Below, one piece after another: positions 2 to 46,980 of a stretch of 64,000 nt of DNA. The number at the start of each line of letters is the position of its first letter. Within the stretch, counting starts at the first letter, position 1. Source of the stretch: Candidatus Omnitrophota bacterium (lineage in GTDB: Bacteria > Omnitrophota > Gorgyraeia > VGKH01 > JBHPFN01); contig JBHPFN010000004.1 of assembly GCA_042571725.1 (NCBI GenBank), forward strand, positions 507 to 64,506, given 5' to 3'. The notes beneath the pieces are model-generated. The model made no database searches. It was not told the origin of the DNA and saw nothing but the letters and a program-made list of their open reading frames with translations. A program made the position numbers and the translations under genes.

Positions 2-3000
2 TCACCAACAAGGGATACTCGGGATTCGCCGCAACAAGGCGGCGGCGCAATGTTTGTTTCGTTTTGGCCGCTGTTACTGCTAGGCGGCGCAGCACTTGCC
101 GGTGCGCATTTGTTTGGGGCAGAATGCTTAGCTTACGCGGGTATCCCATTCTTAGCAAAAAAGGGTTCTGGTGGCAGAGCTAAGGCAAAAGGCCTGCTGG
201 GTAGGGGATGGGAAAGGGTTACTACCTTCTTTAGTCCTCCCAATATAGCGCAGGAGCGAAGCAGTGATCAGATTGAAGAGCGTGAACTCGAATTAAGAAA
301 TCTAGATGAAGGCGAAACCATTACGCTGAAAGATGGGAGTAATAAAAAATATAGATTTACTTTATTGAAAAAGCCAAAAGGAATGAGAGGAGTTTTATGC
401 TACGATCCCTATCTCGACGGTGACGAAGACAAGATAATGTATTTTGCAAAGGCAAGGGATTTAGATGGCGGAAGAAATGTCCTTCTTCTGTTTAATCTTC
501 AGGCCTCTCAATTATCAGAAGAAGCATTGTCAGATAGAAGCCGAGAAAACATTGCTTTTTTGGCTAAAGTTAACCATCGTAATATTGCGCCTAACCATGT
601 TCTAAAAGACTCAAGAGGAGATATAGTAGTCGTGATTCCTTATTTTCCTGTTCAGGATCCAACACACCTACGCTTCTACCATAGAGATAAGGTAAGCCGT
701 TTTAAAGATGTTCTCTTTCGCTATTTAGCCAATTGCGACAGGATCGAAAGAGAAGACGTCATTAAGCTTCTGGATATGATTGTCGGTTTAGCTGATGCCT
801 TTATGTGTTTCATTGATGATCTTGAGGTTGTTCCGGGCGACTTTGATTTCTCTATAGATGAATCCGGCGTGATATTGTTGGTTCCTAATTATCAAGGGTA
901 CACTACGCTTGATTACCAACGTGACAAAATGGAAATAGAGAGAAAATTATTAGAAATCATGCATGGCTGCATAGAAGCGATAGAGCCATTTTTACCAAAC
1001 GAACCCCGCTATCATTCATTAATTCATCGAGCATTAGGTATCCTAAAAAACTACAGGTACTTTTGGGATAGGTCTAAAAGTAAAACTATTGGGGATTTAG
1101 TAGTTGATTTACAAAGTATGCGGGCTGATTTTATTGCTCAAGATCAAACTCCCGGAACTTTTGAACCAACCTATCATGATTTATTGGGACAAAGGCGAGT
1201 ACCGTGTAGGTTCTCATGGCAAGAAGACGAAAGTTTTGTAAGTCTTGAAGCCAAAAAAGCAGAGTCTTGGTGGGAACTTTTTGGCAATGCTAGCGCTCAC
1301 CAAAAGGAACGGGAGCTAGCAATAGCTTCTTCAGAGCTACTAAAAGTAGGCGTAAGCATTTCAGATTTTGTGAGAGGTAAAAAAGTTCTCTCTATTGGTT
1401 TTGGCAAGTGCGTTGGTGAGCTTGGAGTATTAATTGAAGAATATTCTGAAGATGCGTCAGGGATTGTGGGTATAGAGTGGGAGAGGGATTTAGTTGTTGA
1501 TGCGGCGCAAGGACTTTTTAATCGCTTCGCTGATGCTTCAGGAGATGGCGTCTATCGCCAAAGAGTTTTGGATAAGGTAAGGCTCTTTTGTGAGGATGCC
1601 GCTTGTCTAAATGAAATACTTGAGGATAATTCTGTCGGATTTATCTATGTGGCTAATATATTTGTTAATGATTTTCCGATTTCCAAAAATAAGAAACAGG
1701 CGATATTTGAAGAAATGATGAGGATCTTGGAAGATGGGGGAATTGTTGTGTTGATCACTACGGATGATTGGGTAAAAGAAAAGCTAAGAGAAACAGGTAC
1801 TGTTATTTGCGAACAGCAAGCGCTCGTTGTCTATCAGCATTCTAATCAATCAGCGCAAGAGACAAAGCCTGCTTTGGATGTTGCGCAAATGGTTTCTTCC
1901 TGGTGGCCGATGGTGATTCCGCTTGGCCTTGGTCTGTTAGAGAGCTTTACTGGTGGAATCACAGAAACAACCGGGCTTGCTGTTTTCGTGGGGATTCCAT
2001 TTTCACTCGAGAGAATACTCAATGGGGTTAATGGTATCCGCGGTTCGCCGTGGCTGCGCAAGCCTAAAAAGATCTTCCGCAATCGTTCCACCGCTATTAT
2101 CCTTGGCCTCTTAATTGTCCTCAACGGCATAGCACCCTTTCCCGGAAAACCCAGCATTGCCCAAAACGATATTGCCACTTTGGTCTTTATCATCAATCTC
2201 ATCGCAGGAATTATGTTTCTTCCCTTGATGCAGTTTATGTTTAACGGCAGATTCATCGCACTTTCAAAAGATTTAACCAAAAAACAATGGCGTGACATCA
2301 TAGGGCACGGGTTGCTCATCCAGGGCGTTGTCTTCCCCTTGTTTTTATTGGGCTTAGGGCTTGTTTCGGAAAAAACCTTTGTCATTGTGACTCGTCTACA
2401 GCCATTTCTGATATTGTTGCTGGGTATCCTATGGTTTAAAACGGATACGTTCGCATGGAGGAAATTAATCGGCTTTGTTTCTGTAACGGGCACCATGGCT
2501 CTATTTCTTGCATCAAAGACTTCCGCAGGCAGTAGCCAGATGTGGGGGGTTATCTTTGTGGTATTGGCAACCATTGTGGGATCGGTTGCGAACTGCTGGA
2601 GAGGAAAGATAGTAAGGGTCATCGAAAATGGCGCCTTGATTACAGTCTTATCGATTTGGATCGGTGTAGTTACAGGGGTGCTCCTTGCGGGGCTGGCGCT
2701 CATCGGCTATGCTATCGGGTTTGCGAATCCAGATATTCTTAATGAGCTTTTTTCAATTCATCATGTGTACCCGGTGATATCTTGGCAATTGATTGTGTAT
2801 TCCCTCATCTTAGGCTGGGGCCTGTTTCTTAATTTTGAAGCGCACGAACGCAATCCAGCGGCCCCGTTGACAAATTTGCTTTCGTTTGCTCCGGTTGTCA
2901 CGATGATTGTTTTCCAGGCTATCCATCGGACTATGCCAGTATCGAATGAGATTGTAGTTGTCGCAATTATGATTCTCGGGACGTTCTTGATAAAGCGGTC

Positions 3001-24000: not shown

Positions 24001-27000
24001 TTGTCGGGCAATAAAAAATCATAGCGAATTAGCAAGGTTTCTTTCTGAGCAGGGACCACATGTAGGCGTTGAGATTATTGATTCCGATGAAACACAATTT
24101 AATCCTGCGAATTTTGCTGATTTATCCGAAGACCACCTACTCTTTAATTATGCCCCTCATTTGATTGGAAGATTACAGTTGAGAGAAGGTATGTATAGCA
24201 TGATTGATTCAGGAGTAAACGCATTGACTGCAATTACTACCTTGGGGGGTAGCATCGGTTGTCTTATGTCACGCACTCCCATAACTTCAGCATACCGACA
24301 CCAATTCGCAATAGCGGGAGAAGATCAAGTCAGCGTCAAGCGCTCAGGCGGCGGCGTAATGATGTCGATGTGGGGATTATTTACCACGCTTGCCGGTCTT
24401 TTTTCCGGTGGGATGGTATTGGGTGTGGCAAGCGGGTCAGATGATAGTCATCTCTCCTCGCCGGCACAGACTCTTTCACTCGATTCGATCTCAATCGAAC
24501 GTATTGAAGAAGATGCATATGACGCATTGACTGATGAAATAAACGCACTCATCGAGCCAAGCGCCCAATTTTATGATAATCCTCTCGGTCGAGCTGTATT
24601 GTTTCATCGTCTGTTATCTCAAGGTGATTATTTTACCTTATCCCTTTTTAATATTTGGGAGTTATTAATTAAAGGAAGAAAACTGGTTACTCAGGTTTTA
24701 ACGGCACGTTCGCCAGACGGTCAGCTATGCGGCATACACATGTTGAGTCTGGCAGATACAAGTCGCTATGTAGAAAAATATCCTATGCTAGCAGGGGAGC
24801 AACTTTTTGCAGCTACTGTGGCGGTGTTTCCTCAGGCACGAAGGTTGGGTTTGGGAAGTATGCTTACTCAGATAAGCTTGACTCTTGCTCATAGGCAAGA
24901 TAATGTGAGGCTCTTTAGATTTTCCGCTCTTAAAGGTAATGAGCTTTCAGGCAGAACTATGAATGCTGCAGCACGTACCCTGCAGGCAACACCTCAATAT
25001 CTCGGCGAGAGACATTCTAACCCAGGTGTTTTACTTGATGATTATCTATTGAGCATGAATGGAGATGCGCCATTTTCTGCTCGCGCTGAGGCTCTTTCTA
25101 AAGAAGAAGATAAGACAGGAAGGGGGGCAACGGCTTCGATGGGAGGATTGCTTACTACACTTACCGGCCTTTTCTCCGGCGGGATGGTGTTGGGTGTGGC
25201 AGCACTGACCTTTGTAAATGAGGCAGTACAGCACCAACTTTCTCTGGATGTATTAGACATAGTCAGTGCAGCACTGAAACTTGTATGCGAGGCAGTGCAG
25301 CACCCACTCAATTCAACACATATGGGTGCAGTGCCAACTTCCTTTGCCTATTTATTTGGAATAGTTGGTGCAGAAGCAGGTGAAGGTAACCCGTCGAAGA
25401 AAGCGACAAGAGAAGATTTAAAGCGTCGCGTAAGAGAAAAGAAAATCATATGGTCGCTGACCGATAAGCACAGAGATAAGCTTCCATTGCTTTTGGCTCT
25501 AGATATTATTCCGGGCTTATCAATCAGTGATGTCAGAATTAATCGAAATCGCTTTTTTCATTGGGTTACGACTGTCCGAATGATTGCTGACAGCATTCGG
25601 AGAAAAGAAGATGGATTGTTGTCGGCAGTTACGGATATTGGAGCAACATTATTTCTAGCTCACGCCAGAGCTGAAGCGGACATTTATATAGGCAGTAGGT
25701 CTATAACTCGGAAATCGATTACAGAGGGCCGAAAGATTGCTGCACAAGAAGGCCGAGAGATTTTGGTTTTAGTCTCAAGAGGTATGTATGCACTTAGAAA
25801 AAACATACTTGGACAACTTGAAAGATCTTGTCAGAGGGCTCAAGACAATGGTGCTGACGGAATAATTATTGAGCCATCGAGTAGAAAAGAGGACATTGCA
25901 AGTATCGTTACAGCGCTTAAGCGGAAATTTCCGCAGCTACTCATTGGTATCGGAGTTAGTGCAGGACTGACCGATGCTCATTTACTTTTCAAGGAAACAG
26001 AAGCTGATTTTATTATGATAAGGACTAACTGGATTTCTGATGAGCCTATTAAAGAAGCACCGAGGCTTCGCAGAGACGTTGACGAGGTGCTCGCAGAGAA
26101 AGGCGGAGCAGTTCATTCAACCTTAACGGGAATCACCACACTCACACAGGATATCATAGTAAAGAATCCCCGCACAGGTAAATATGGTAGATTTGCTGAA
26201 AGTCAACTATGCGACTGGAGAGATCCACTGATAGTCAGAACAGCAGAAGAGATTGTGCAGGGTGCAACAACCGATGCAGAAAAGGCGCGCAGGATTTGCG
26301 TATGGCTTAAAGAGAACATCGAATACCATCTTGGCCACGGAGCGTACTGGGATATGCCTGCTTCCGGAACACTCGCTACCCGAGATAAAGAACCTAATAA
26401 GGGTAAGATTAAAGCGCACTGTTTTAATTGTGCGAATATACAGGTTGCGATGTTACGTGCTGTAGGTGTTTTTGCACGTTACGCGTCCGTTGAGAGAGAG
26501 ATGGTTGCGGCTAAGAATTTACTTCCTTCGTGGGCATTAGCAAGGATGAGGATATTCAGACATATCTTTGCAGAGGTTTTTGTTGACGGAGCATGGCGCA
26601 GATTCGATGTTACCATGGATGATGATTTTGATACGCCCGGAGAGTGGGAAAAACATGATTCACCGGAGACGCAAGAAGAATACGCAATTTTAGATGCGTA
26701 TGCTTTCGAACAAGCCAAGAGAGATACCCATGCCGAGCGCGACGCAATCGACGATTTTCTTCAGGAAAGACTGCGAAGGCAATTAAGCCGCGGCGGGAGC
26801 CTTGCTACATTCTTTACTCAATGGAGAGAGTGGCATCCTGCTAGAGATGAAGAAGAAGCAAGGTTGCTTAAAGAAAGAGTAGTTTTATGCATTCAGCATT
26901 CGAGAGATGTCACATCGGAGTTTCGGGAAGCTTTAATAGCATTGCAAGAAGATGTGCTGAATTTCGTTTCGACATTCGGGTACACAGAAATTATGAGAGA

Positions 27001-27502
27001 TCCGAGACGAGGTCGGGGTGCGGTAGGATTACTTGCAGTTGTAGGATTTGATCCAGGCGATGGATTTAGAGCTATGCAGGACCGAATAATACAGGTGGTG
27101 CAGCGTGCTGAGTTACGCGTTCTTGATACAGGAGGTCCCTTTTTTAAAACCCCTGTTGGAGAAGCTGTGTTACTCGTAGGAGAAAGTAGTGGCCACACTA
27201 TTTTTTATATTACCAAACAATTTTTTCTTACGCTTAACGAACAGATTGCTGAAAGCTGGTTTTCTCCTTTAGGGACAATTTTTGCTCACGGTGCCTGTCG
27301 CGTCGCTGGATATACCGAAGCTCAGGCTAATGCCTATCATTTAGTAGTAAATAAAGAGATAGATCAGCTAGTGCAGGCTATATCTGTCGGTTCCGATTCA
27401 CAGACAAAAAGACATGGCGGCGGGAAGACCTCGCCTATTCCTGGCGAAGAAGATGAAGAGGCAAAGAAAGATGACGAGCACGTTGAGGAGGAAGAAAACT
27501 AA
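2..27502 (+). CDS. Giant multi-module ORF, 5' end off-window (9,166 sense codons visible): at least 18 heterogeneous enzyme/membrane modules joined by a recurring hydrophobic junction
   Basis: No stop in this frame from nt 2 to the TAA at 27500-27502. The 16 codons before the first ATG (SPTRDTRDSPQQGGGA) reproduce the pre-junction motif seen again at 7736-7780 and 15485-15530, so the ORF continues upstream. Each inter-junction block carries a different catalytic signature (see domain features). Confidence 0.9.
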   Translation, partial: SPTRDTRDSPQQGGGAMFVSFWPLLLLGGAALAGAHLFGAECLAYAGIPFLAKKGSGGRAKAKGLLGRGWERVTTFFSPPNIAQERSSDQIEERELELRNLDEGETITLKDGSNKKYRFTLLKKPKGMRGVLCYDPYLDGDEDKIMYFAKARDLDGGRNVLLLFNLQASQLSEEALSDRSRENIAFLAKVNHRNIAPNHVLKDSRGDIVVVIPYFPVQDPTHLRFYHRDKVSRFKDVLFRYLANCDRIEREDVIKLLDMIVGLADAFMCFIDDLEVVPGDFDFSIDESGVILLVPNYQGYTTLDYQRDKMEIERKLLEIMHGCIEAIEPFLPNEPRYHSLIHRALGILKNYRYFWDRSKSKTIGDLVVDLQSMRADFIAQDQTPGTFEPTYHDLLGQRRVPCRFSWQEDESFVSLEAKKAESWWELFGNASAHQKERELAIASSELLKVGVSISDFVRGKKVLSIGFGKCVGELGVLIEEYSEDASGIVGIEWERDLVVDAAQGLFNRFADASGDGVYRQRVLDKVRLFCEDAACLNEILEDNSVGFIYVANIFVNDFPISKNKKQAIFEEMMRILEDGGIVVLITTDDWVKEKLRETGTVICEQQALVVYQHSNQSAQETKPALDVAQMVSSWWPMVIPLGLGLLESFTGGITETTGLAVFVGIPFSLERILNGVNGIRGSPWLRKPKKIFRNRSTAIILGLLIVLNGIAPFPGKPSIAQNDIATLVFIINLIAGIMFLPLMQFMFNGRFIALSKDLTKKQWRDIIGHGLLIQGVVFPLFLLGLGLVSEKTFVIVTRLQPFLILLLGILWFKTDTFAWRKLIGFVSVTGTMALFLASKTSAGSSQMWGVIFVVLATIVGSVANCWRGKIVRVIENGALITVLSIWIGVVTGVLLAGLALIGYAIGFANPDILNELFSIHHVYPVISWQLIVYSLILGWGLFLNFEAHERNPAAPLTNLLSFAPVVTMIVFQAIHRTMPVSNEIVVVAIMILGTFLIKRSYRGKTGLGKGNNEVDLHIHSKPYSPGATLLSEKIVDEAVERDLKAIAVTDYHSLRGTVKAIRYVEEKGLNSKIEIIPGVEIETKEGYRLLVYFPDVQRFRTHFDRIEATMPEMEKRTAREVFRWANTSGFGGVAICSLSGEGQKPTNEREMVKLLRQGCDGFEADHSSSRSRSVVNTLMILNNWNFFYPTFAKIITVGSNFYDGRKQEIGRGWPGRRDFRHAYSWGYDLVEDLKALANRKILQQEQSDGTLALGPEFDLREYPYVLNSARQVERSATPMIDLHVVSSCSHRKRPSPLEIIESVSRRGVKTIAFADIGTAQGAIDTKELAAERGVEVILAVEIHTNELEHLLVYFIEGAQRMSAEDIEILIQQSKRMTVEETINWARALGGIAHLAHPGWYGEPFDIERSRAWCNAGLGGFEVDHGFFRSRNRLPIMVFLFKHNLSEIWKNPDGSSLDLKTMTVGSGGKGIPCQGWEHKTQWPDAPSYGPGVVEALKRKAAMQNAHATESTALPAAGQSGTGDGVSCFMGMGSGALDTILGTFLNLFRELSLIGTHLALASETSLISFGGMVLGVAIDADDEWREELDRINHEFKQLQKEEGLSTEEYVDRANILIVELAEYAKKACMDINAFPLYEKLLLSKQERVKADPKYYREGKRIDPYEEIAKPLGRGPIFVFINPYSRPYGFWLPTNIFHLSNELRAAGIAQGHSSIASGDVVNVSSASLDDEIRKMRNYYGDRELIYGISTSETLYPACMEFVKAIRRNEPESLVVLGGHMVNADHENVAKHARQLGVNVLVRGGARNLPELVKALIGQKANEPIGADLRKFVESQQGVLLLAGGKEAEGRYYDIGNEAETYPDLESRVLHPSVVRYAAELSAKGAYLKEEDRRTMTIQITSEIGCPYGCDYCSGPFSKVKCVSAGKLIAEIEEIIDILGLENDIVIELTGADTLINKKRIREFLDIILTDKRQLIPYLKRSKCTASVRSFYVEGRLDEELIDKLAQVFGVVQIGVESGDDEELVRWGKGVTWSQTEALFEAIERANKKHKTSFSVDMYAIASGLETRPRNLINSLANLLYAFLRYDCIGRTYVMSVVIPDIGSRVFVRLTDDDMRRMDPDYRRQYRILEELDCFLYEHVLPRDALVRSFFVGKKLREEVLGATRNEGCPRGLEAISIYEALWNFGYLCAEQRLRLTKEKEEGTNWNEEKQARLDELIDVIDLFNEKLSFMKRTGLKDKYDAIVEKYSEPDESQGRGGGAFISSWWPILILGGTTLVGAHFLGVQGAESAMMLPIFLKLRRRGPPFGRIRLAFNRAVEKIKNERDELVRKGFIGNQYWRDRDNIKDELMLVFFVTAAYSFLFKYVLEVFGGAPPSLSIANYIIIAIFIFLITLSASVGHPIFHIIHAYRINKRNKKAGIELPTAKQRISVLKRPFIVHNTITVLAIAAVMIVNNDILQGVFVFAAIIHFWRGAAARVSTDGYAIESLKKHGQAYDMLRDGFEDVVRDVRLGVMQRIGLLFPIAIEAEGRRWQVHPGTLGPFAEYVTSRIDALLSRGDRGSGEQDFDVAPPVPSAVEGLASDESTMDTRDSPREGGGVMMSMWGLFTTLAGLFFGGMVLGVAADADNDESATGNFWAEEEDVELTKVITLELYLNPRFRELRGLLSSLGIGRNFNKIHTGLRFARFLLHEEKAHPHVSVNALLSRARMLRIFIEMMREYFSAEEMVEIFALSYTGLFFSHQVEGAEEAISLHDNKLRETLYPNEIFNLGLDEKQFVPMALVVLSCLERLENPDNETTPGVETPTRRVVREFIDTTLNEYIPRLQQENQNIHQGAPFYPPYLGSAGWLIDWQEGARERSALLGDHCRYHAYQFGYSAIRQIGWGFSGGRIWNMISTHRHDYPAIVGFIEKHCRLASGRISLRLIKDVFQGGKAFPNLPMLEEFLTNRPTTTIDELMQCSSAPLITPYHIDTNRGGEIYVPIGFQLGREGFGMEHMKSKVAQRRIDLQELLGEMWLDTIIKVGVLPIIGMGLQVPAAQGERMFFFGKINPHRVRWLQQTRQEIGRFQPLSDETIDLLGNIYLQVVVGLVEDEHVRGYKGNVITAFPIVEPQEVAEQVLVSVKELDGRRALSRQSIYQHIVQPCNRLFRRWGVPFVIRRHKEGKRKYTLVPTNASTGSGIIASMWGIVILLSGFFSGGMVLGVAEGLGCSASLLPPMYTNAQEGNFVGRYSKIIEQEKGRVTADDVEELRRFSRLIPELLTLKSLRSCDGSALEVFDLLENNEFVVRWHDAVSMDADRGDSHCYCSVVIAGVRFILDLTAEQFETAPSEEEKYTFLGIVLIPARVAFELRERLDFYSMPDGCRGYTSTYVDWRKAQGYRVEYEEGNPELLENRNLAGMVSLICALEDIDPRVREAAQSLLDNSPYALIGPYRRRLLDPGVSWTISESVASFLLDEYFRYADNFDVPLPLFVVDGPSGIGKTTTAQEMVRVTGKGKIKYQLVYLNLDMFLKDQAWRHEIRDKIASGELHPDDFDERDFFDYDRIIAMLRDIDEFRRSGDETGVLVLTHVWNPEKGRYEDLQIPLTRNTVFLIDGKYAHEKRLRPFYGKHPFKVRLDEDDDSIGRKFEHRERAKGKSEEEVAKQMIFHDLVVLPHFRRYAQEPQENLFVLRCSHGEIPTEPLRDADVDSVERESRAAGGGAMMLMWGIFTTLTGLFSGGMVLGVAADADGGRKDDAVPPASGRVARLTDRFLGWLNERLFALQRIIGRRLSESRRLTAVWTNEEIALEGILQFSPAELEEQRQNIINRYIVPQRRLQYLPYESRLRGRNRWRWNDTVFVVLLEDGTQVTAHSSHIRGVLIKVVLEIENRIQLEERKRRRKLSDDEREEFIRQLTLVVASTDYLGEAVAIVARLMGVQAQIFLPQWASQGTIEALSQFGVSVDSHLPDYDVASAHARNFFELHANAILIDGAEDETKARGAAIAAMEMMHEWHKWIGYETIKAMARLIAKYEKMSLEAVIREYDYSELAQRWEDLEEQLKRRDHRHYTSVNEDVTMLSSAEAQPLLEELRQDEELLVELVRPIGLVPSQFVVVGGTGLDAAGTIEGLRRDNVPVTIVEPSGANPLYCSLTGREEGEPPILLRASETSAIGVRVRSVGHMPHAVLRKTLHRAVTVSEESVEEMRKFLSATGLDVEGTGALPHAAVVLERADLFDDDIILHVNSSRIDTELSQEELAHPKAKTVFFRIHPRLQELWLLVRGAIRVPRFSRIFFQRMRFQKIGGERQLARQVAAVYEETIQDILRRWDAIPEKEERLRGRMRQLMGLLVELDITDLSVFRLRPRHWIWLYQNTVLQGEQPAFVAQVRERVETICRITEVQDFTSLADAEFDGYGKKLKSLAREHSKTDFVQLEPKDLIDLFEHFSAGLPYDARQWIRHALDPLLWGRTQKNWGRAEAARDEIIESFNHDQEGVATAYYDRREAVPIDRLVPTQDLKAEFPGDDHAGIVKRLRRDIKGGLIVPITVFEIPGSDDYFLMWGGPRALAKYQEGHATINAFIVKVASPQEQTLQFLSQQMHLRCQEKGLASILDLFPDSPTRFLNKTLLYPPTAHRIERAIDSEEREFTPMTDFPIRGAHVRIATFRSEVQGAPLVFIHTRRAGDTLEIYFSLAAFILFRQVFSESARQDGLEMIVVYLSERLIRERSHTTASVAFETYSQRSARMKEARRRLRLLTQKAEKRNLTGDWRVTGSRGDREQPESMPVEEDDWSVVMHAYLIVRNAHLSADLPANRHEYEDVLARVTRSLSGRQFTITVDGRVILAYDAGLQQAPVVHDLWLTQRGRKVFYSAAGILFSEEEPFITIIGSATPTDRSEHDTDEFPRLVDDNEATDATPPERPEGDQPSGGGASCFVGIELFQLSLLGQLIQFAFGGLVLGVTVDADNNNISEGPPEHRWWDEQESPAFDVLEAQLEVQRRIMERLQERINGAIHGKFRLKSTPFVCAIFNIAHADALRIQVFLSEEERSRDPELADALASLGMSKGWIGIMDIVIATDIKMQPLLVISEVLVAKAYWRLRDRDKRKIKRWHKLLVSYFEAIKEEVGVAEVLKPTNGQMKSLPALQREFEERAHLPDAIDELYGRPSREYRDEEREILIWKYGGCTVKADFWVYREAFLVSDSSTRDTQDSPQKGDGNGIITSMWALFTTLAGIFSGGMVLGVASGSDGVGSPSLVSERGDSPLSISETKRRAYDELARRRKYDLGERPAMKEAAASIFGQAIPLDEVRGSKVLDVAIGAGLISGYAAENGAREIVGVDISSGMLKWADSNLAPFTSTATIRLIKGDILRLADLFRKEDGQVEKFEIITIGNVLSFYPPKERVAILSQALELLEEGGYIVLLYRSMDEVKNPLATLVYRRPMIPKITPDGYVEILENLARDLGYTVEAGFYAANYETDTDYNRQLSDLEVVVSHTMVLWAKRKPLAARNIGDLPTPAQPGGDDASCFMGMGLFQLGWLSQLFQFAFGGMVLGVAEGSGSFEQARGFTSYEYERYGLNLSDIPDEFACEPLAIIRIRENLSQRNWFWRHATPKIRERAIERIKTLMNKLEALQSLESFKNIIGDRKIVAIYTAGSYPWHDDPGDIDVHFVVRGERGFELIYLSAEEADELSIALEFTGRKMTRIALQIFGTTNLERAAQDIEIKDGGNLQRKLLTIYGNAVQLGGLDLFENSQPPANDFHILASCIRSLAVGSVREKRLREAEAIEDWLAEGITTPKMGVAEVGGFSSGVDIITIANQVAQRSGHAGSVALKIHAFLNRSNPDIHRHAVLLSRASKSSVPGMKRSKVPPNPVISIASAKYMLRAAAMRAGKTKYYDSSIPEESSNPEDSHSGGGAMFIFIWPVVILAALLAVPTIAWAGEFGKLIDTANSFYQWYAALLSTHTLIVKILTSAILLAIGDFIAQWTEKKSLRSLDKWRLIYMTILGGGYGIVWHVLFMLLEKGFPGRDLLSGVLPKLLIDQGPFTMFFHFLNFFMVGLFGGVGSFFATGVFTFTFEKYKDTIRKDYKLALFTNWLYWPTIQAVSYLIIPLDFRVLWVNIAFIFWAPILSKIGHGEWKAFTRKLARNPRSGGGAMMSIWGLFTTLAGLFSGGMVLGVAADAGDVSATADSHDYLILAEAQRLFEGEGIAHRVEEVIAFTGPQRAFIEYAISKLNQGYQLSDVVYLVESVRQTSFAHVEELLSDDRIIWYANRPKATIGTIIWHTVNCAYRDNIHQAHTLMYELGIAPSCLKGIIDAIGFIGIEDVRLWLTGREFPIRPSEIFRIAHLQKQSSMEEVKKALRSGTEYLRIQDDMTEPRCFSSIEEAIEVLGHEELKALRVSPQRPLRVSDVLYVVAVLKEYGADEVNFAMSFGVDPWKLQYVLKGLRSDREKWLSWLQERERYGRYKVTLNRAAQSRRALESFRTAEQHRREQRGFRLRLFDFEARIYPFSDYDPRAKADADEDFVLALYPSGSDSLRSPKKKTRKIGFHYPHGTIGGMRFKIINNEIIVCDVQSDIQEDLHRRYKYWYTMILVVLEDFAAEFSITRIIVPPAYAQFRLWAEQLYGPNPLTMFSFYARGYPAGDYSLRQMPDGAMHGLVAMPFAWTKGINARDELDVSTVERCFFELLEREIGQSAKEEAVRGGGAMVSMWGLFTTLAGLFSGGMVLGVAGGLDEARSSTPVETEKSRSQVLWNVAERLGSLTSIEERGACEDAFADALKTALARKEAMRLLDFIRSRARREPDENQPCPGFYYVRQDSQENLVLARFAEGDFLAAILGSKFAPPGNEQSVWYGNEAKDIMLYTNVNNNGYIVVFPSAAFNALANQGQAKHVTGLPDLEEWHYFYVKDDLPISGETTPLIFIGTGLSEKLEAAQSEDAQLREKLEALRKQVQIEVLDLTKQTMVDNLEAALARHGFKFVGKKFWPSWKVIIYNVLQVPEMSEITEKILRSEGEDSASVSSPGGDQPTGGGASLASDRLTDDRIFLQAVRDALHARPFVPEQLIRALKRDPEIRRLFETKAKSWISQRVRATLEARHPGAVKQWVLDTLEIHTLRVMHQFERYLAAEELPSGADLSMFRLLLALHDIGKPLTKGDEDTRKQYVHTQDTIKELRHKLPLPAEQIDLMMALLDGDPLGLYMQGSTAIEKTRTTIIGMNNRVKYPLADFFRLLTLYYQSDTLSYTLDAGYDSDWLAGLFVFDIEHSRFVFDDEAGRMKFSGEKESRFRALEESIVSLNVGHREIYPKGGGASCFVGIGLFQLGQLSQLGQLALSAVEGLFQFTFGGMVLGVASGSDESRSSSPARRNRRNDDAKRKLREAFERGEDIVIALSDRTPQAKLFAFDWDGIFAKEKGYFEKAWAALIVMIKNKTENINAGELSPEQVQEGEVFRRETRGMEYALRFDRLRAMALQSGADRSQLRTDQECADIFYEIIIRLAQQDFGEDLEDWIYPESKAFLINLKTDHPDRLTYVVTANIQNAFREIIVSRFSIKRYFDGIFGHPLRSSPDNIINKTTILTELRQRNGLGVNEVVFFGDAVSDIRFGREAGVIVVGVANTYENGVQLIDAGADIIVTSLAPRREIMQLLMDSSASSPTGEGKPTGGGAMVSIWGLLATLTGLFSGGMVLGVAADAKNDEGAAGDSETDTASSLMTVRTFSTGRHSFQIVSTPHDTEFGIDLSVPHEGREECEIGIHLWRFARLAEFFMDSYRGNMENGPGYLEQWMRTHDIVTTFLDEDEHRLLCGERLTLLGRQTTVEDRELLEKNFIPELLGFIVTIASNDEIREQFLRICNEELVRWSDPYIRSHFIPAEIQTVIQQFQGGLRGLGNVKPLDVEIMQVLRILSRRRLPVRKFFMYERDTRWARDEKLLLPHLEGEPYYFVFPGEGEFDKDETHLFERGAVVSGIARTPFLIYADSVDVQEVEALGRYARENIPGYEALSVYRLPAGWATFQFGNKIYLLDNAHLDCVSGYIPRRFSHRNENILLLDPHYCRAIKNHSELARFLSEQGPHVGVEIIDSDETQFNPANFADLSEDHLLFNYAPHLIGRLQLREGMYSMIDSGVNALTAITTLGGSIGCLMSRTPITSAYRHQFAIAGEDQVSVKRSGGGVMMSMWGLFTTLAGLFSGGMVLGVASGSDDSHLSSPAQTLSLDSISIERIEEDAYDALTDEINALIEPSAQFYDNPLGRAVLFHRLLSQGDYFTLSLFNIWELLIKGRKLVTQVLTARSPDGQLCGIHMLSLADTSRYVEKYPMLAGEQLFAATVAVFPQARRLGLGSMLTQISLTLAHRQDNVRLFRFSALKGNELSGRTMNAAARTLQATPQYLGERHSNPGVLLDDYLLSMNGDAPFSARAEALSKEEDKTGRGATASMGGLLTTLTGLFSGGMVLGVAALTFVNEAVQHQLSLDVLDIVSAALKLVCEAVQHPLNSTHMGAVPTSFAYLFGIVGAEAGEGNPSKKATREDLKRRVREKKIIWSLTDKHRDKLPLLLALDIIPGLSISDVRINRNRFFHWVTTVRMIADSIRRKEDGLLSAVTDIGATLFLAHARAEADIYIGSRSITRKSITEGRKIAAQEGREILVLVSRGMYALRKNILGQLERSCQRAQDNGADGIIIEPSSRKEDIASIVTALKRKFPQLLIGIGVSAGLTDAHLLFKETEADFIMIRTNWISDEPIKEAPRLRRDVDEVLAEKGGAVHSTLTGITTLTQDIIVKNPRTGKYGRFAESQLCDWRDPLIVRTAEEIVQGATTDAEKARRICVWLKENIEYHLGHGAYWDMPASGTLATRDKEPNKGKIKAHCFNCANIQVAMLRAVGVFARYASVEREMVAAKNLLPSWALARMRIFRHIFAEVFVDGAWRRFDVTMDDDFDTPGEWEKHDSPETQEEYAILDAYAFEQAKRDTHAERDAIDDFLQERLRRQLSRGGSLATFFTQWREWHPARDEEEARLLKERVVLCIQHSRDVTSEFREALIALQEDVLNFVSTFGYTEIMRDPRRGRGAVGLLAVVGFDPGDGFRAMQDRIIQVVQRAELRVLDTGGPFFKTPVGEAVLLVGESSGHTIFYITKQFFLTLNEQIAESWFSPLGTIFAHGACRVAGYTEAQANAYHLVVNKEIDQLVQAISVGSDSQTKRHGGGKTSPIPGEEDEEAKKDDEHVEEEEN
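38..124 (+). repeat. Junction J0 (type B): GGGA-MFVSFWPLLLLGGAALAGAHLFGAE
   Basis: In-frame ggc ggc ggc gca followed by atg at 50 and a hydrophobic WP-containing helix. Closely resembles J3 and J10. Basic flank follows (KKGSGGRAKAK). Confidence 0.8.
1379..1790 (+). other. Module 1 domain: class I SAM-dependent methyltransferase-like
   Basis: Motif I-like KKVLSIGFGKCVGELG, then GIEWERDLV, FIYVANIF and post-III ILEDGGIVVLIT. Confidence 0.5.
1889..1963 (+). repeat. Junction J1 (type B variant, no GGG): MVSSWWPMVIPLGLGLLESFTGGIT
   Basis: SSWWP core shared with J3 (ISSWWPILILGG). Leads into the polytopic membrane domain. GIPF shortly after, as in J0. Confidence 0.6.
1889..3000 (+). other. Module 2 domain: polytopic membrane region (about 9-10 hydrophobic segments, EamA/DMT-like impression)
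   Basis: A run of about 20-aa hydrophobic segments separated by short K/R loops (AIILGLLIVLNGIAPF, LVFIINLIAGIMFLPL, LLIQGVVFPLFLLGLGLV and others). Family assignment is tentative. Confidence 0.5.
3041..3620 (+). other. Module 2 domain: PHP (polymerase/histidinol-phosphatase) phosphoesterase, copy 1
   Basis: VDLHIHSKPYSPGA...AIAVTDYHSL...IIPGVEIETKEGYRLLVYF matches the canonical PHP N-terminal DLHxHS / TDH / GxE pattern. Confidence 0.6.
3836..4400 (+). other. Module 2 domain: PHP-like domain, copy 2 (more divergent)
   Basis: MIDLHVVSSCSH...KTIAFADIGTAQG...ILAVEIHTNELEHLLVYF...HLAHPGWYG parallels copy 1. Confidence 0.45.
4562..4741 (+). repeat. Junction J2 (type C, long): GDGVSCFMGMG...SLISFGGMVLGVAIDADD
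   Basis: SCFMGMG start and FGGMVLGVA end shared with J7, J9 and J13. Contains the exact 20-mer gggatggtgttgggtgtggc at 4706-4725. Confidence 0.8.
5218..6215 (+). other. Module 3 domain: B12-binding-like domain + radical SAM core
   Basis: CxxxCxxC at 5705-5728 (CPYGCDYC), preceded by a Rossmann-like LVVLGGHMVNADHE...VLVRGGARNLPELV segment, as in B12-binding (class B-type) radical SAM enzymes. GVESGDDEEL downstream. Confidence 0.65.
6758..6853 (+). repeat. Junction J3 (type B): GGGA-FISSWWPILILGGTTLVGAHFLGVQGAE
   Basis: ggc ggc ggg gcg then a hydrophobic WWP helix, near-identical in pattern to J0. Followed by a basic stretch (LKLRRRGPPFGRIR) and a membrane module. Confidence 0.8.
6854..7400 (+). 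other. Module 4: small membrane domain of unknown family (about 4 hydrophobic segments)
   Basis: LMLVFFVTAAYSFLFKYVLEVFGG, IANYIIIAIFIFLITLSASVG, ITVLAIAAVMIVNN, GVFVFAAIIHFW. Confidence 0.4.
7769..7864 (+). repeat. Junction J4 (type A): GGGV-MMSMWGLFTTLAGLFFGGMVLGVA-ADAD
   Basis: Prototype junction. ATG directly after the G-run (7781). Exact 20-mer present. Acidic flank ADADNDE. Confidence 0.9.
9506..9589 (+). repeat. Junction J5 (type A variant): GSGIIASMWGIVILLSGFFSGGMVLGVA
   Basis: SMWG...SGGMVLGVA retained. The 20-mer has 2 mismatches (ggcatggtgttgggggtggc). Confidence 0.8.
10379..10985 (+). other. Module 6 domain: P-loop kinase (uridine kinase/phosphoribulokinase-like)
   Basis: Walker A GPSGIGKTT at 10397-10423 followed by YLNLDMFLKD and VFLIDGKYA, the pattern of the PRK/uridine kinase family. 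Confidence 0.45.
11063..11158 (+). repeat. Junction J6 (type A): GGGA-MMLMWGIFTTLTGLFSGGMVLGVA-ADAD
   Basis: ggc ggc ggg gcg atg atg. Exact 20-mer. Acidic flank ADADGG. Confidence 0.9.
11393..12660 (+). other. Module 7 domain: PLP fold-type II (Trp-synthase-beta/threonine dehydratase superfamily)-like
   Basis: VVASTDYLGEAVAIVARLMGVQAQIFLP, and the VVVGGTGLDAAGTIEGL glycine loop. The expected SFKxRG lysine position reads SSHIRG (11525-11542). Confidence 0.45.
13409..13645 (+). other. Module 7 domain: ParB/sulfiredoxin-like N-terminal domain
   Basis: VPIDRLVPTQD...IVKRLRRDIKGGLIVPITVFEIPGSDDYFLMWGGPRALA...INAFIV resembles the ParB-like nuclease fold pattern (l.P...R, Pi.v, G.hR..A). Confidence 0.4.
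14666..14779 (+). repeat. Junction J7 (type C): GGGA-SCFVGIELFQLSLLGQLIQFAFGGLVLGVT-VDAD
   Basis: Preceded by GDQPS (ggagatcaaccc, also at 20933). The 20-mer has 2 mismatches. Confidence 0.85.
15521..15622 (+). repeat. Junction J8 (type A): GDGNGIITSMWALFTTLAGIFSGGMVLGVA-SGSD
   Basis: Preceded by SSTRDTQDSPQK (the TRDT-DSP pre-junction element). The 20-mer has 1 mismatch. Confidence 0.85.
15812..16150 (+). other. Module 9 domain: class I SAM-dependent methyltransferase
   Basis: KVLDVAIGAGLISGY (motif I), EIVGVDISSGML (motif II), ITIGNVLSFY, LEEGGYIVLL. Confidence 0.6.
16436..16540 (+). repeat. Junction J9 (type C): GGDDASCFMGMGLFQLGWLSQLFQFAFGGMVLGVA
   Basis: Type C pattern. Exact 20-mer. 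Followed by EGSGS. Confidence 0.85.
16808..17110 (+). other. Module 10 domain: nucleotidyltransferase (Pol-beta-fold)-like
   Basis: IVAIYTAGSYPWHDDPGDIDVHFVV matches the GS...(D/E)xD signature of minimal NTases. Confidence 0.4.
17267..17281 (+). repeat. Junction scar J9b: only the 3' end retained (MGVAE)
   Basis: tgggtgtggcagagg equals the last 15 nt of the J9 region (the preceding base differs, atg vs ttg). No GGG and no hydrophobic helix upstream. Confidence 0.5.
17609..17695 (+). repeat. Junction J10 (type B): GGGA-MFIFIWPVVILAALLAVPTIAWAGE
   Basis: ggc ggt ggg gcg atg ttt. Parallels J0 (GGGAMFVSFWP). Leads into the Mpv17/PMP22-like membrane module. Confidence 0.8.
17730..18270 (+). other. 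Module 11 domain: Mpv17/PMP22-family membrane protein-like
   Basis: WYAALLSTHTLIVKILTSAILLAIGDFIAQ...LLIDQGPFTMFF...NWLYWPTIQAVSYLIIPLDFRVLWVNIAFIFWAPILS tracks the family consensus as I recall it. Confidence 0.55.
18320..18418 (+). repeat. Junction J11 (type A): GGGA-MMSIWGLFTTLAGLFSGGMVLGVA-ADAGD
   Basis: Exact 20-mer. ATG directly after the G-run (18332). Confidence 0.9.
19973..20071 (+). repeat. Junction J12 (type A): GGGA-MVSMWGLFTTLAGLFSGGMVLGVA-GGLDE
   Basis: The G-run is ggcggaggagca (contains GGAGGA) immediately before ATG 19985. Exact 20-mer. Confidence 0.9.
20927..20965 (+). repeat. Junction scar J12b: only the 5' half retained (PGGDQPTGGGASL), no hydrophobic helix
   Basis: ggagatcaacccaccggcggcggggca is near-identical to the 5' half of J7 (14651-14677), but it runs straight into the soluble HD module. 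Confidence 0.6.
21187..21600 (+). other. Module 14 domain: HD phosphohydrolase
   Basis: EIHTLRVM...LLLALHDIGKP, with the HD doublet at 21296-21301. Confidence 0.55.
21776..21925 (+). repeat. Junction J13 (type C, longest): GGGA-SCFVGIGLFQLGQLSQLGQLALSAVEGLFQFTFGGMVLGVA-SGSDE
   Basis: Type C pattern with an internal QLGQLSQLGQL expansion. Exact 20-mer. Confidence 0.9.
22052..22710 (+). other. Module 15 domain: HAD-superfamily hydrolase
   Basis: Motif I FDWDG (DxD at 22064-22072), motif II VVTAN, motif IV FFGDAVSDI. Confidence 0.6.
22838..22930 (+). repeat. Junction J14 (type A): GGGA-MVSIWGLLATLTGLFSGGMVLGVA-ADA
   Basis: The G-run ggcggaggggcg (contains GGAGG) sits before ATG 22850. The 20-mer has 1 mismatch (gta for gtg). 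Confidence 0.9.
23650..24290 (+). other. Module 16 domain: guanidino-group modifying enzyme superfamily (amidinotransferase/arginine-deiminase/DDAH-like)
   Basis: AHLDCV (23921-) resembles the MHLDT motif. FNPANFADLSEDHLLFN. C-terminal GGSIGCLMS with the candidate catalytic Cys at 24260-24262. Confidence 0.5.
24347..24445 (+). repeat. Junction J15 (type A): GGGV-MMSMWGLFTTLAGLFSGGMVLGVA-SGSDD
   Basis: Peptide almost identical to J4. The 20-mer has 1 mismatch. ATG at 24359. Confidence 0.9.
24640..24965 (+). other. Module 17 domain: GNAT acetyltransferase-like
   Basis: VAVFPQARRLGLGSMLTQ resembles GNAT motif A (Q/RxxGxG). Confidence 0.45.
25118..25204 (+). repeat. Junction J16 (type A variant): GRGATASMGGLLTTLTGLFSGGMVLGVAA
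   Basis: Exact 20-mer. W replaced by G. No acidic flank (ALTF follows). Confidence 0.8.
26275..26625 (+). other. Module 18 domain: transglutaminase-like cysteine protease core
   Basis: KAHCFNCANIQVAMLRAVGVFARY (Cys at 26420-26422), then HIFAEVFVDGAWRRFDVT, giving the Cys-His-Asp arrangement of the TGase-like core. Confidence 0.55.
27416..27424 (+). repeat. Terminal GGG boundary motif (KRHGGG) followed only by a 25-aa acidic tail and the stop
   Basis: ggc ggc ggg in frame. The context basic-residue + GGG matches the 5' half of the junctions. No hydrophobic helix follows (KTSPIPGEEDEEAKKDDEHVEEEEN*). Confidence 0.5.
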
Positions 27503-27732: not shown

Positions 27733-28062
27733 ATGCATGCTCAAGATTTACGATCAAATGTACGTTATGGCTGTACAGTTCCTATCATGTGCCGCCGTGG
27801 TACTGCCTTCGAGCATGGTCAGACCAGAGACATTTCAGAGAACGGCATTGGGTTAATCTCTCAGAAGTTTATCCCGAAGAATTCAAAACTTATCTTAGAG
27901 ATTGCCCTTGCTCCAGCCACGGAGCCTCTGATGGCGTTGGGAAAGGTTAAATGGGTTGAGAAAATGGGTTATTCAGAGATGTATCGGCTTGGGCTTCAAT
28001 TCGAGAACCTCTCTGTAGATACCCAGAAACGCCTTTCCAAGTTCTTCAGGGGTACAGTATAA
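27733..28062 (+). CDS. PilZ domain protein (c-di-GMP receptor-type)
   Basis: RSNVR (RxxxR) and DISENG (DxSxxG) motifs. 109 aa single domain. Confidence 0.7.
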   Translation: MHAQDLRSNVRYGCTVPIMCRRGTAFEHGQTRDISENGIGLISQKFIPKNSKLILEIALAPATEPLMALGKVKWVEKMGYSEMYRLGLQFENLSVDTQKRLSKFFRGTV

Positions 28063-28160
28063 CTCACCAATCACTACTGAAAGCCTGAGTTTTTCGACAC
28101 GAAAGAAGGTATGTGTACATCTCTATGTACGCATCGGGTCATCCATAAGGAGTGATCGAA

Positions 28161-28541
28161 ATGGAAGACAAAAGAGTTTTAAACCGGTGGCCTATCACCT
28201 TTACTGCTCAGTACTTCACCGAGAAAGACGCTGATACACAAACCCAGACAACCTGTACGTGTAAGAATATCAACAACAAAGGAATTTGTCTCTGCGTCGA
28301 TCGAGAGCTCCCGAAAGATTCCTACCTTGACGTAAACCTTATGCTGCGGGATTATGGTTCTGTGCCTGCGCGCTGCCGGGTTATCTGGCAGAGGAAGGTT
28401 GAGAGGGAAGGGGAGTCGCACTTTTTAACCGGACTTCGCTTCACCCGTATCAGCGACGAATACAAGGAGCGGATCTTCGAGTGTATCTATAGAAATATGC
28501 GTGAAGAACTACTGCAGCACTGGTGGAAGGGCATCGGGTAA
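28161..28541 (+). CDS. PilZ domain protein (second, divergent)
   Basis: RVLNR (RxxxR) and NINNKG in place of DxSxxG. ATG 28161 is preferred over the track's GTG 28152 because AAGGAG at 28147-28152 sits 8 nt upstream. Confidence 0.55.
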   Translation: MEDKRVLNRWPITFTAQYFTEKDADTQTQTTCTCKNINNKGICLCVDRELPKDSYLDVNLMLRDYGSVPARCRVIWQRKVEREGESHFLTGLRFTRISDEYKERIFECIYRNMREELLQHWWKGIG

Positions 28542-31107: not shown

Positions 31108-31230
31108 ATTTCCTATTTAAGCGCTTTCTTAGCGCAATCCTGCGTAACTTATTTTATTGTAATAATTACTGGCAAAATCTTCAAAAATATGCTATACTAT
31201 AGGTACATTAGAATCATAAAATAGAAATTC

Positions 31231-31258
31231 AAAAGGGTCAGAGGTTGACCCTTTTTTA
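31231..31258 (+). terminator. Intrinsic terminator downstream of the phosphorylase gene
   Basis: aaaagggtca (31231-40) pairs perfectly with tgaccctttt (31246-55), 5-nt loop, T-run follows. Confidence 0.6.
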
Positions 31259-31468
31259 TTGGATAGATTTTAAACTATTTGAAAAAGAATGTAACTATGA
31301 AGCCAAGAAGACAAGCAGAGAGCGATTGGTTTACGCAGATTACTGCAGATGAAACAATGCAGGAGATTACTGATATCTGCGATCAACTGTTTATGCAGTC
31401 TGTGTCTATCTGCGTAAGGATGAGTCAGCTTAGTATGTTAAACAAACAAAAGCCTTGGAGGCGCAAGG

Positions 31469-31861: not shown

Positions 31862-32000
31862 GTATGGCGGTCAGCGTAGATAACATTATAGCGGGTAAGC
31901 TATTCAGTTTTATAACCTATTAAAAAAACTCCTTTTTTAAAAACATACTAAAGTAGTATTTTAGTATAGCAAGGTGGATTTATTTATTCGAGGGGATGGA

Positions 32001-33293: not shown

Positions 33294-33296
33294 CGT

Positions 33297-34190: not shown

Positions 34191-34262
34191 GGGCGGCACA
34201 CCGAAGGTTCAGCTCTCCGTTTGAACGAAACGGAGAGGAGAAACCCCGGCTCGGAAAAAATT

Positions 34263-35111: not shown

Positions 35112-35164
35112 AAAAACGTTTCATCTAGAAACGTTGTTTTAATTGAAAGGAGAAGCGTTAATCT

Positions 35165-36643: not shown

Positions 36644-36716
36644 ATATCAAACGCCAAGATAAGTTGTTGTAGAAGTATATCGTTAAAGATATTATCGCAG
36701 AAGCGGTGGAGGGAAG

Positions 36717-46978: not shown

Positions 46979-46980
46979 TT

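Follow-up and report, generated by a model that had tools for sequence, protein, structure and literature searches.

The left part of the 64,000-nucleotide (nt) window analysed here, from contig JBHPFN010000004.1 of a Candidatus Omnitrophota bacterium, is occupied by the 3′ part of a giant gene that strings together unrelated enzyme and membrane modules, with a recurring junction peptide at their borders. This part covers positions 2–27502 on the + strand (9,166 codons plus stop). Frame 2 holds 9,166 sense codons and not one stop between 2 and 27499, with the stop codon at 27500–27502, whereas each of the remaining five frames contains 308–704 stops over the same stretch; base composition puts the probability of such a stop-free frame at about 1e-252. 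An earlier reading of this DNA from its letters and translations (hereafter the sequence-only reading) had reported a 27.5-kb stop-free open reading frame (ORF) open at the left window edge, and these counts confirm it. The window edge truncates the gene; its start is not the first ATG (position 50), since codon 13 already opens a junction motif. Stop-codon reassignment is irrelevant, as none of the three stop codons occurs in frame.

Directly downstream lie two small PilZ genes (27733–28541, +), recognized by family match, by synteny and from West-Roberts 2023; PilZ genes in this position are a conserved signature of Omnitrophota giant-gene loci. They are followed by a conserved block (28675–39071, +) encoding a GH94 cellobiose phosphorylase, a solute-binding protein (SBP), two ABC permeases, an MFS transporter and a TPR–GH2-like protein. 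The GH94 protein (28675–31107) is 100% identical to NCBI MFC1703492.1 of Candidatus Omnitrophota bacterium, encoded on a 73,627-bp contig, and among its 120 best matches every protein with a source name is labelled Omnitrophota or Omnitrophica. Loci fetched around GH94 orthologues (67–78% identity) gave seven independent contigs, in all of which the giant gene is followed by two to four PilZ genes, then GH94 and then sugar transport, with upstream giant genes called at 32,516, 15,650, 15,685, 11,957, 17,470, 21,600, 13,491 and 44,129 amino acids (aa). Since these syntenic relatives carry a giant gene at the same place, the window ORF can be assigned as the 3′ part of an Omnitrophota giant gene; in the complete genome CP070837.1, GH94 is present without one. 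The rest of the window is ordinary bacterial chromosome, also encoding ROK and LacI regulators, a class II ribonucleotide reductase, a phosphoglycerate mutase and mnmG. A phage or plasmid origin is ruled out by this chromosomal housekeeping context (mnmG, ribonucleotide reductase, phosphoglycerate mutase).

Giant ORFs of >20 kb with many transmembrane (TM) helices have been reported in most Omnitrophota genomes, with the 39,678-aa, 42-TM protein of Velamenicoccus archaeovorus LiM as the cited example (Seymour et al. 2023, PMC10066038); the same 39,678-aa protein is the type protein of the ‘Archaeovorins’ (West-Roberts et al. 2023; Kizina et al. 2022). Forty-six genes exceed 90 kb, with a locus resembling a type II secretion system (T2SS) upstream and pilZ genes and SBP-dependent carbohydrate transport downstream, and the giant proteins carry C39 or S8 peptidase domains at their N-termini, their cleavage points being stated as unknown (West-Roberts et al. 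2023, bioRxiv 10.1101/2023.11.21.568195). A catalogue of 916 long proteins distinguishes, as its class 1, ‘multi-enzyme metabolic clusters’ in which the polypeptide is tiled by numerous different Pfams; over the whole catalogue, methyltransferase, GNAT, HAD, HD and radical S-adenosylmethionine (SAM) domains form Pfam co-occurrence modules, and the protein richest in TM segments has roughly one helix per 370 residues (Nielsen & Lui 2026, bioRxiv 10.64898/2026.06.07.730766). Such gigantic proteins have also been read as combined sensing and effector batteries for predation (Burroughs et al. 2025, Aravind lab, PMC12419801).

The window ORF shares the features of this class: an Omnitrophota genome, TM-like helices along the chain, tiling by diverged enzyme domains, and downstream pilZ genes, SBP transport and glycoside hydrolases. 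Its visible 27.5 kb exceeds the >20-kb criterion of Seymour 2023, and its 9,166 aa are the visible part of a longer ORF when set beside the other cut-offs in use, at least 10 thousand amino acids (kaa; Nielsen & Lui) and at least 30 kaa (West-Roberts). Like the Archaeovorins and the multi-enzyme cluster class, it belongs to this phylum, spans tens of kilobases, encodes many TM helices and unrelated, diverged enzyme domains (methyltransferase, radical SAM, HAD, HD, GNAT), is followed by pilZ, SBP sugar transport and glycoside hydrolases, and is unique in sequence between genomes. We therefore regard it as nearly certain that the ORF represents the C-terminal 9,166 residues of a giant gene from an uncultured Omnitrophota bacterium, a member of the described giant, membrane-associated, multi-enzyme class (‘Archaeovorin’-like or ‘multi-enzyme cluster’) in a conserved locus of giant gene, PilZ, GH94 and sugar import. 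The sequence-only reading had taken the architecture to be undescribed, which does not hold, as the published Omnitrophota giant-gene signature (giant ORF, pilZ, SBP sugar transport) is present at the locus. It had allowed that the protein might belong to an already characterized family with the same junction: the family has indeed been described, though not biochemically characterized, and the exact junction was found nowhere else. On its own, the ORF is one further fragment of a class with thousands of catalogued members, with the border-marking junction peptide as its possibly new element. What sets it apart from the Archaeovorins as described is that its last 9,166 residues show a regular, gene-specific junction peptide at every module border.

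About 18 blocks make up the visible chain, each with one to three independent enzyme or small membrane domains, as judged by hidden Markov model (HMM) scans with Pfam and NCBIfam and by additional PADLOC and PDB sequence searches. Between the junctions the sequence is non-repetitive, as the sequence-only reading had noted and as repeat finding agrees. Its picture of one ORF in which unrelated enzyme and membrane modules follow each other like beads on a string is likewise upheld, by 18 borders and ten blocks that we count as Pfam-supported. All on the + strand, these comprise an EamA-like multi-pass membrane module (1883–3013; PF00892, 9e-7, two stretches; hydropathy), two PHP phosphoesterase modules (3014–4561; PF02811, 1.2e-14, two stretches), a B12-binding and radical SAM module with the motif GCPYGCDYC (CxxxCxxC; 4742–6757; PF04055, 3e-10; PF02310, 2e-4), a pyridoxal phosphate (PLP)-dependent fold-type II (PALP) module (11552–12781; PF00291, 3e-24), a class I SAM methyltransferase module (no. 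2; 15620–16438; PF13649, 1e-10; mad2 methyltransferase in PADLOC), an Mpv17/PMP22-like four-TM module (17609–18319; PF04117, 2.9e-12), an HD module (20948–21775; 2.7e-4, at 21.6 bits just below the Pfam cutoff of 22), a HAD module (21914–22837; PF00702, 4.7e-6) and, at the C-terminus, a module with a transglutaminase-like core (papain-fold Cys-His-Asp; 26102–27499; PF01841, 1e-12). In a Kyte–Doolittle scan, each junction and three multi-pass modules show hydrophobic segments. We also observed, at 17609–18319, an Mpv17/PMP22 domain embedded in a bacterial giant protein; the family is best known from eukaryotic peroxisomal and mitochondrial membranes.

The domain calls of the sequence-only reading thus fared unevenly. 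Pfam bears out the two PHP domains, radical SAM, PLP fold II, the second methyltransferase, Mpv17/PMP22, HAD and the transglutaminase-like core, with HD just short of the cutoff; the first methyltransferase (E 0.03), a Walker-A/PRK-like kinase (0.03) and GNAT (0.07) have weak scores (E 0.03–0.09), and the ParB-like domain, the nucleotidyltransferase and a ‘GME’ C-terminal Cys drew no statistical support from Pfam, NCBIfam or PDB sequence searches. Four blocks that it could not assign by eye (7865–9505, 14780–15520, 18419–19972 and 20072–20947) stayed unassigned in the Pfam, NCBIfam, PADLOC and PDB searches too, as did several further blocks. PDB searches with seven stretches covering the modules without firm Pfam support returned nothing below E = 0.3, PADLOC recognized the methyltransferase only, and single-sequence AlphaFold on the claimed GME block (22931–24346) gave an unusable model with a predicted local distance difference test (pLDDT) score of 35.6. 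Three consecutive modules (18320–21901) had no homologue at E ≤ 1e-3 in a word-indexed search of 5.8 billion protein clusters, and neither the GT, GH, NUDIX and HEAT domains typical of Archaeovorins nor SecA-DEAD and C39 domains occur in the visible 3′ part of the gene. As the sequence-only reading had stated, the ORF matches no adhesin, repeats-in-toxin (RTX) or multifunctional autoprocessing RTX (MARTX) toxin, or nonribosomal peptide synthetase/polyketide synthase (NRPS/PKS) type. Pfam and NCBIfam detect neither RTX glycine-rich A/B/C repeats nor an inositol-hexakisphosphate-activated cysteine protease domain (CPD) in the whole ORF, and no condensation, adenylation, ketosynthase, acyltransferase or carrier-protein domains. 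It fits none of the adhesin, RTX and NRPS types because it belongs to a separate, recently reported Omnitrophota class.

The 18 borders consist of nine type-A, four type-B and three type-C junctions, one degenerate type C and one remnant. Their core, GGNGGNATGGTNTTGGGNGTNGC, occurs in 13 copies, all on the + strand, in frame and inside the ORF only, compared with 0.01 expected from shuffles. Repeat finding recovers a nine-copy family of ~126 nt (type A, D1), a three-copy family of 108 nt (type B, D3) and smaller families that correspond to upstream halves. The general layout is [K/R]-x-GGG-A, an uncharged, glycine-zipper-like helix of 24–30 residues (..WGLFTTLAGLFSGGMVLGVA), A-x-A or S-G-S, and an acidic low-complexity linker. 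Type A has the protein form [K/R]xGGG[AV]MMSMWGLFTTLAGLFSGGMVLGVA(ADAD or SGSD) in its nine copies, exemplified by ..RE GGGVMMSMWGLFTTLAGLFFGGMVLGVAADA at 7769–7861 (+); the other eight D1 copies lie at 9506–9598, 11063–11155, 15521–15619, 18320–18412, 19973–20065, 22838–22930, 24347–24439 and 25118–25210 (+). The four copies of the long type B (family D3), GGGASCF[VM]G...F.FGG[ML]VLGV, include GGGASCFVG...FAFGGLVLGVTVDAD at 14666–14779 (+), the others being at 4562–4741, 16439–16549 and 21776–21913 (+). Type C, GGGAMF.SFWP..L.GG..L.GAH, leads directly into a multi-pass membrane module; it is found as GGGAMFVSFWPLLLLGG..L.GAH at 38–136 (+; families D6 and D7), at 6758–6856 and 17609–17701, and as a degenerate copy at 1883–1981 (+). 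The remnant (20948–20962, +; family D5) is an upstream half, GDQPT GGGAS, that lacks the hydrophobic helix and shares 92% DNA identity with 14651–14676. An extended upstream DNA repeat, 70–87% identical and encoding S/T-TRDT(R/Q)DSP..GGG, is common to three junctions (6–52, 7737–7783 and 15489–15535), which suggests that some junctions were copied along with the tail of the preceding module.

Junctions of this kind, in other forms, recur among the relatives. Five of the six syntenic giant genes with readable 3′ ends have their own recurring junction at module borders: GPGFGCFVVPLSLG[VM]VEE in L005 (eight copies in 2,912 aa, the core being written GPGFGCFVVPLSLGVVEE in the 8 copies), D[ST]S[CSH]F[VI]SF..GG[LMF]VFG[RV]AEE in L002 (seven copies), FGCFFIP..LFGGD..KGN in L009 (five copies), SSSPVE in L010 (nine copies) and SSSAV in L007. 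Where domains are detectable in these relatives, each inter-motif block contains one Pfam domain (methyltransferases, radical SAM, HATPase, GNAT). By eye, a pattern of small-[C/S]-F-hydrophobic ... [L/F]-G-hydrophobic-[A/V]-acidic is common to L002, L005, L009 and window type B, whose SCF...GG.V.G.A pattern also appears in the junctions of those three relatives. The last 2,300–2,950 aa of the giant proteins of L002, L005, L007, L009, L010 and L011 have no BLAST match to the window protein or to one another; the flanking GH94 genes of the same relatives are 71–78% identical. The giant gene is a hypervariable island within a conserved neighbourhood, with a border motif that is kept within a gene and differs between genes, alongside a fast turnover of module content. 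Within the L009 giant protein, residues ~300–540 form internal tandem repeats of about 45–90 aa (KLTKALAELKKQKNWYKYAELIFGMSKGRLIDREEVLS); the L002 protein has three ~100-aa repeats at residues ~1900–2300 (..NLTQRQVSDEV..QERFLSNGF..) and ends in a sigma-70 region-4 helix–turn–helix (PF04545, 5.5e-6).

The window form of the junction was sought more widely. A type-A profile (A1) found no match among 5.8e9 protein clusters; a 13-copy profile (A2) run with full HMMER against 1.84e9 representatives returned only three spurious Ig-repeat proteins with ASGGLATGVA-like low-complexity repeats; and the back-translated junction gave one chance match in GTDB species genomes, to a TadB/GspF-like membrane protein of an Anaerolineaceae metagenome-assembled genome, and nothing in JGI metagenomes. 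Given these searches, the window-type junction appears private to the lineage of the window genome, itself absent from the collections searched. The search of other genomes for the junction motif proposed by the sequence-only reading had a divided outcome, with the window form in none of them and own recurring junctions in five of six relatives. The motif is not mentioned in West-Roberts 2023 or Nielsen & Lui 2026, the words cleavage, linker and junction are absent from the latter, and its exact form was found nowhere else. The giant protein too was not found in the protein collections searched, though the neighbouring GH94 is there; it was probably annotated as partial or pseudo, or dropped for length, and giant ORFs may be systematically under-represented in protein databases.

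Comparison of codons helps to separate selection on the peptide from copying of the DNA. Among the window junction-core copies, codon identity is 0.74 versus 0.26 expected, and TTG is used in 13 of 13 copies, though it makes up only 18% of Leu codons. Codon identity is also above expectation in the L005 and L010 junctions. In L002 and L009 it is near expectation (0.55, against 0.48 and 0.49 expected) and the peptide is kept; there, what is conserved is the peptide and not the DNA, which points to selection on the junction peptide. In some lineages, gene conversion or recent spread homogenizes the junction DNA too.

The conserved peptide has a marked polarity. For the alignment of 13 copies, the AlphaFold prediction is one continuous helix of ~30 residues (residues 8–37), not a hairpin, at moderate confidence (pLDDT 69.5). 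Each of the nine type-A copies has K or R among the 12 positions upstream, together 25 of 108 residues (background 11.7%), compared with 5 of 108 downstream, and the first charged residue downstream is D or E in 13 of 13 core junctions. By the well-established positive-inside rule, basic residues upstream and acidic ones downstream mean that every junction copy would prefer an N-in/C-out orientation. In an uncleaved chain with one span per junction, orientation would have to alternate, so this uniform polarity argues against such a chain. In the relatives, the uncharged run of the junction is 5–19 residues, too short for a membrane span. Taken with the polarity, this speaks, on sequence grounds, against membrane spanning within an intact chain as the junction's conserved role. 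In the window lineage the helices would insert independently, and that calls for either cutting or separate synthesis.

We tentatively propose, as the likeliest mechanism, that the junctions could be the processing and membrane-targeting signals of a polyprotein. The precursor would be cut into single modules at recognition elements in the junctions, possibly by C39 or S8 domains at the N-termini of, or beside, such genes, or here by the C-terminal transglutaminase-like papain-fold module, a candidate protease by its fold. In L012 (878–8895), two paralogous ~1,300-aa proteins with a Peptidase_S8 (subtilisin) domain and FG-GAP repeats lie between the 44,129-aa giant gene and the PilZ genes and are candidates for trans-acting processing proteases; no Peptidase_S8/FG-GAP genes like them are present in the window. 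Each released module of the window lineage would keep its hydrophobic helix as an N-terminal element of signal-anchor or signal-peptide type, which might anchor it in the inner membrane or route it outwards, perhaps towards the T2SS/Tad-like machinery found beside such genes in other genomes. The repeated junction DNA would supply homology for intragenic recombination, and we infer that this may account for the concerted evolution of the junctions and the fast module turnover. Taken jointly, the identity of the gene and this mechanism form an account that we hold to be fairly probable. The generalization that Omnitrophota giant genes are chromosomal polyproteins is more speculative: a gene-specific junction peptide would co-evolve with a cognate protease (C39, S8 or papain-like) and here double as a signal-anchor, a 30–100-kb ORF would be cut into dozens of separately membrane-inserted or secreted enzymes, and junction DNA would drive cassette-like shuffling of modules.

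Several points weigh against a polyprotein. The candidate cut sites GGG|A, GG|MVLGV and AxA| are pattern resemblances. A cut right after GGG would leave the basic residues on the upstream fragment, which weakens the signal-peptide analogy. Export is disfavoured by chemistry that is hard to picture outside the cytoplasm, namely that of the radical SAM, PLP, kinase (ATP) and methyltransferase (SAM) modules, although it could be reconciled with such chemistry if the enzymes act in a prey cell, as predation hypotheses hold. Sorting-signal, prepilin N-methylation and Hint models of NCBIfam and Pfam do not match the junctions, the 3′ end of the L011 giant gene has no evident junction, and the homology of junctions across lineages appears in short patterns judged by eye. 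Moreover, roughly half of such proteins have been read as uncleaved, inner-membrane-anchored chains (Nielsen & Lui 2026, bioRxiv 10.64898/2026.06.07.730766).

An intact polytopic megaprotein of the latter kind, with one inner-membrane span per junction and modules alternating between cytoplasm and periplasm as a membrane-organized enzyme array, is the rival that we take most seriously, though we think it unlikely. The window junction is hydrophobic and long enough to span (29–32 uncharged residues, one helix, hydropathy), true multi-pass modules (EamA, Mpv17) are embedded in the chain, and ~46% of Omnitrophota long proteins are TM-only and membrane-anchored according to DeepTMHMM (Nielsen & Lui 2026). 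Such a chain conflicts with the shared charge polarity of the junctions, and the short junctions of the relatives, kept at module borders nonetheless, could not span. It would also distribute modules of the ATP, SAM, PLP and acetyl-CoA types over both membrane faces: if each junction spans once, the P-loop kinase would face the side opposite to the PALP/PLP module, and HAD and GNAT would lie opposite the transglutaminase-like block. Alternatively, the junctions may serve mainly as DNA recombination substrates, homology patches for the in-frame gain, loss and shuffling of cassettes, with the peptide a tolerated linker. A core 23-mer that is nearly invariant even at synonymous sites (the TTG and codon-identity values given above), the half-junction remnant at 20948 and the wholly different module content of relatives with shared flanks would all follow. 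We nevertheless find it improbable that this is their main role, as the peptides of L002 and L009 are retained with no surplus of codon identity, no conserved fold is seen in the junction RNA, and a neutral linker is unlikely to remain a 30-residue hydrophobic helix of fixed charge polarity. Recombination at the junctions is in any case compatible with, and not exclusive of, their being processing signals.

Two further explanations carry much less weight with us. The gene might be an operon in one frame with internal starts, in which a G-rich GGCGGCGGGGCG followed by ATG ATG (type A) is an internal ribosome-binding site and single modules are produced in addition, their N-termini bearing a hydrophobic leader. 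This would orient all helices alike, and six of nine type-A junctions read GGG-[A/V]-M-M or GGG-A-M-V, a purine-/G-rich stretch lying just upstream. It is very improbable, however: no Met falls within a few codons of the G-rich run in three of the four type-B copies, in the type-C copy at 6758 or in the remnant, the relatives’ junctions have no Met, GGCGG is a poor Shine–Dalgarno match at a spacing of only 3–5 nt from the ATG, and, without stop codons, upstream ribosomes would read through anyway. That the ORF is an artefact, either a chimera that assembly created by collapsing the junction repeats or a pseudogene in decay, is scarcely credible. Dispersed 90–126-nt repeats do confuse short-read assemblers, and the protein is missing from collections that hold its neighbour. 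These repeats, however, are only 63–79% identical to the reference copy over 126 nt and are therefore too diverged to collapse; 27.5 kb without a stop or frameshift, the ten Pfam-supported domains in one frame and the giant genes at the same place in seven independent relative assemblies speak equally against an artefact.

The proposed polyprotein has partial parallels among known systems. Viral polyproteins (flavivirus, pestivirus) also join many unrelated units in one ORF, with short conserved border sites and hydrophobic internal signals followed by small-x-small residues; they use internal signal sequences together with viral and host proteases. The window gene differs in being bacterial and chromosomal, with cleavage only proposed here, and in having a single helix per border in place of the two-helix hairpins that restore luminal topology in flaviviruses. 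MARTX toxins are likewise giant bacterial proteins with an array of unrelated effector enzymes, which are released by inter-effector cleavage, but the sites between their effectors do not form hydrophobic helices. Polyvalent proteins of phages and conjugative elements reportedly combine many disparate enzymatic domains in one polypeptide. With these and with the predation-effector reading, the window gene has in common methylases, peptidases and nucleotide-modifying enzymes in one chain, thought to act on another cell; unlike polyvalent proteins, it sits in a chromosomal housekeeping context, has TM-like punctuation and lacks a DNA-injection context.

At the level of the junction itself, there are resemblances to Sec signals and double-glycine leaders. 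Sec-type signals run from a K/R n-region through an h-region to a c-region with small residues at −3 and −1, the start of the mature part being acidic. All type-A copies show a pattern of this kind (K/R, 24–30 uncharged residues, A-D-A or S-G-S, then D/E), with an unusually long h-region and an internal position, and the junction resembles, as a resemblance only, the native TonB-receptor leader ..SIAAA|DEES. Double-glycine leaders (C39; bacteriocin/PCAT) are defined by GG, GA or GS at −2/−1; positions −4, −7, −12 and −15 are hydrophobic, and −8 is acidic. The window junction has two GG motifs that could be C39-type sites (GGG|A, ..LFSGG|M), the second of them preceded by F(−4), A(−7), L(−12) and M(−15), but it has L at −8 in place of E/D, its sites are internal and repeated, and the window contains no C39 domain. 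The L002 junction ..VLEDLLSIFGG fits the double-glycine pattern better than that of the window, and the L005 junction lacks GG.

Other known signals were rejected, and NCBIfam models gave no match to the junctions at E ≤ 0.01. C-terminal sorting signals (GlyGly-CTERM/rhombosortase, PEP-CTERM, PGF-CTERM, LPXTG) comprise a motif, a TM helix and a basic cluster at the extreme C-terminus; the junctions are internal and acidic, not basic, downstream, and no such NCBIfam model matched. In its K/R-x-GGG followed by a hydrophobic helix, the junction recalls class III (prepilin-type) signal peptides, which are N-terminal and have a basic leader ending in Gly, cleavage after that Gly, Glu at +5 and a hydrophobic helix of ~20 residues; in the window junctions, M, W or S occupies +5, the position in the chain is internal and N_methyl (PF07963) does not match. 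Autoprocessing by inteins or Hint domains was discarded, as the junctions are 17–60 aa long, compared with ~130–150 aa for a Hint fold with its Cys/Ser start, and no Hint or intein Pfam matches the ORF; the G|CF in the L005 junction is a mere tripeptide resemblance to the hedgehog cleavage site. A lipobox reading was also rejected. As for an RNA element, nine copies fold no better than shuffles (z +0.5 to −1.4) and share no common structure, and an Rfam scan found nothing inside the giant ORF.

The junctions are concrete, testable candidates for the places where giant proteins of Omnitrophota have their module borders and are cleaved. They bear on a debate over whether such proteins work as intact megadalton chains or after processing into pieces; the two readings offered by the sequence-only reading, a fused operon and a multi-effector array, are essentially those debated in the literature. 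With a recurring, gene-specific border motif, giant proteins can be divided objectively into modules to be annotated and submitted to structure prediction, and it gives exact peptide termini to seek in metaproteomes (for example, the V. archaeovorus LiM data) and a simple reporter assay of processing and topology. The uniform charge polarity of the junctions is a sequence-level argument against using published alternating-topology predictions at face value. If the polyprotein reading is true, cells would have an equivalent of the way viruses express polyproteins, and the junctions would provide the map of cleavage points that workers in the field describe as missing.

Other features of the window and its relatives are of separate interest. 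Between the GH94 and SBP genes, L002 (13088–16123) and L011 (12679–16179) encode a 1,011–1,166-aa protein with Hint, PT-HINT and intein-splicing domains; the corresponding place in the window (31107–31974) has only a 130-aa ORF (31469–31861) without family matches. Further downstream are two cobalamin riboswitches (Rfam RF00174, 90 and 81 bits; 45878–46074 and 48740–48972, +). The first precedes a BtuF-like/FecCD/ABC-ATPase uptake operon (46121–48731) and the second a TonB-dependent receptor (49095–51134), after which lies the B12-dependent class II ribonucleotide reductase (51517–53781). TonB domains were found in 2 of 560 ORFs flanking the 14 largest giant genes (Nielsen & Lui 2026). Across the window (1–64000), the + strand carries 34 of 35 plausible genes, GC skew stays positive along the whole length, with a monotonic rise in cumulative skew, and mnmG (gidA) lies at 62601–63998, suggesting that this is a leading-strand region, possibly near the replication origin.

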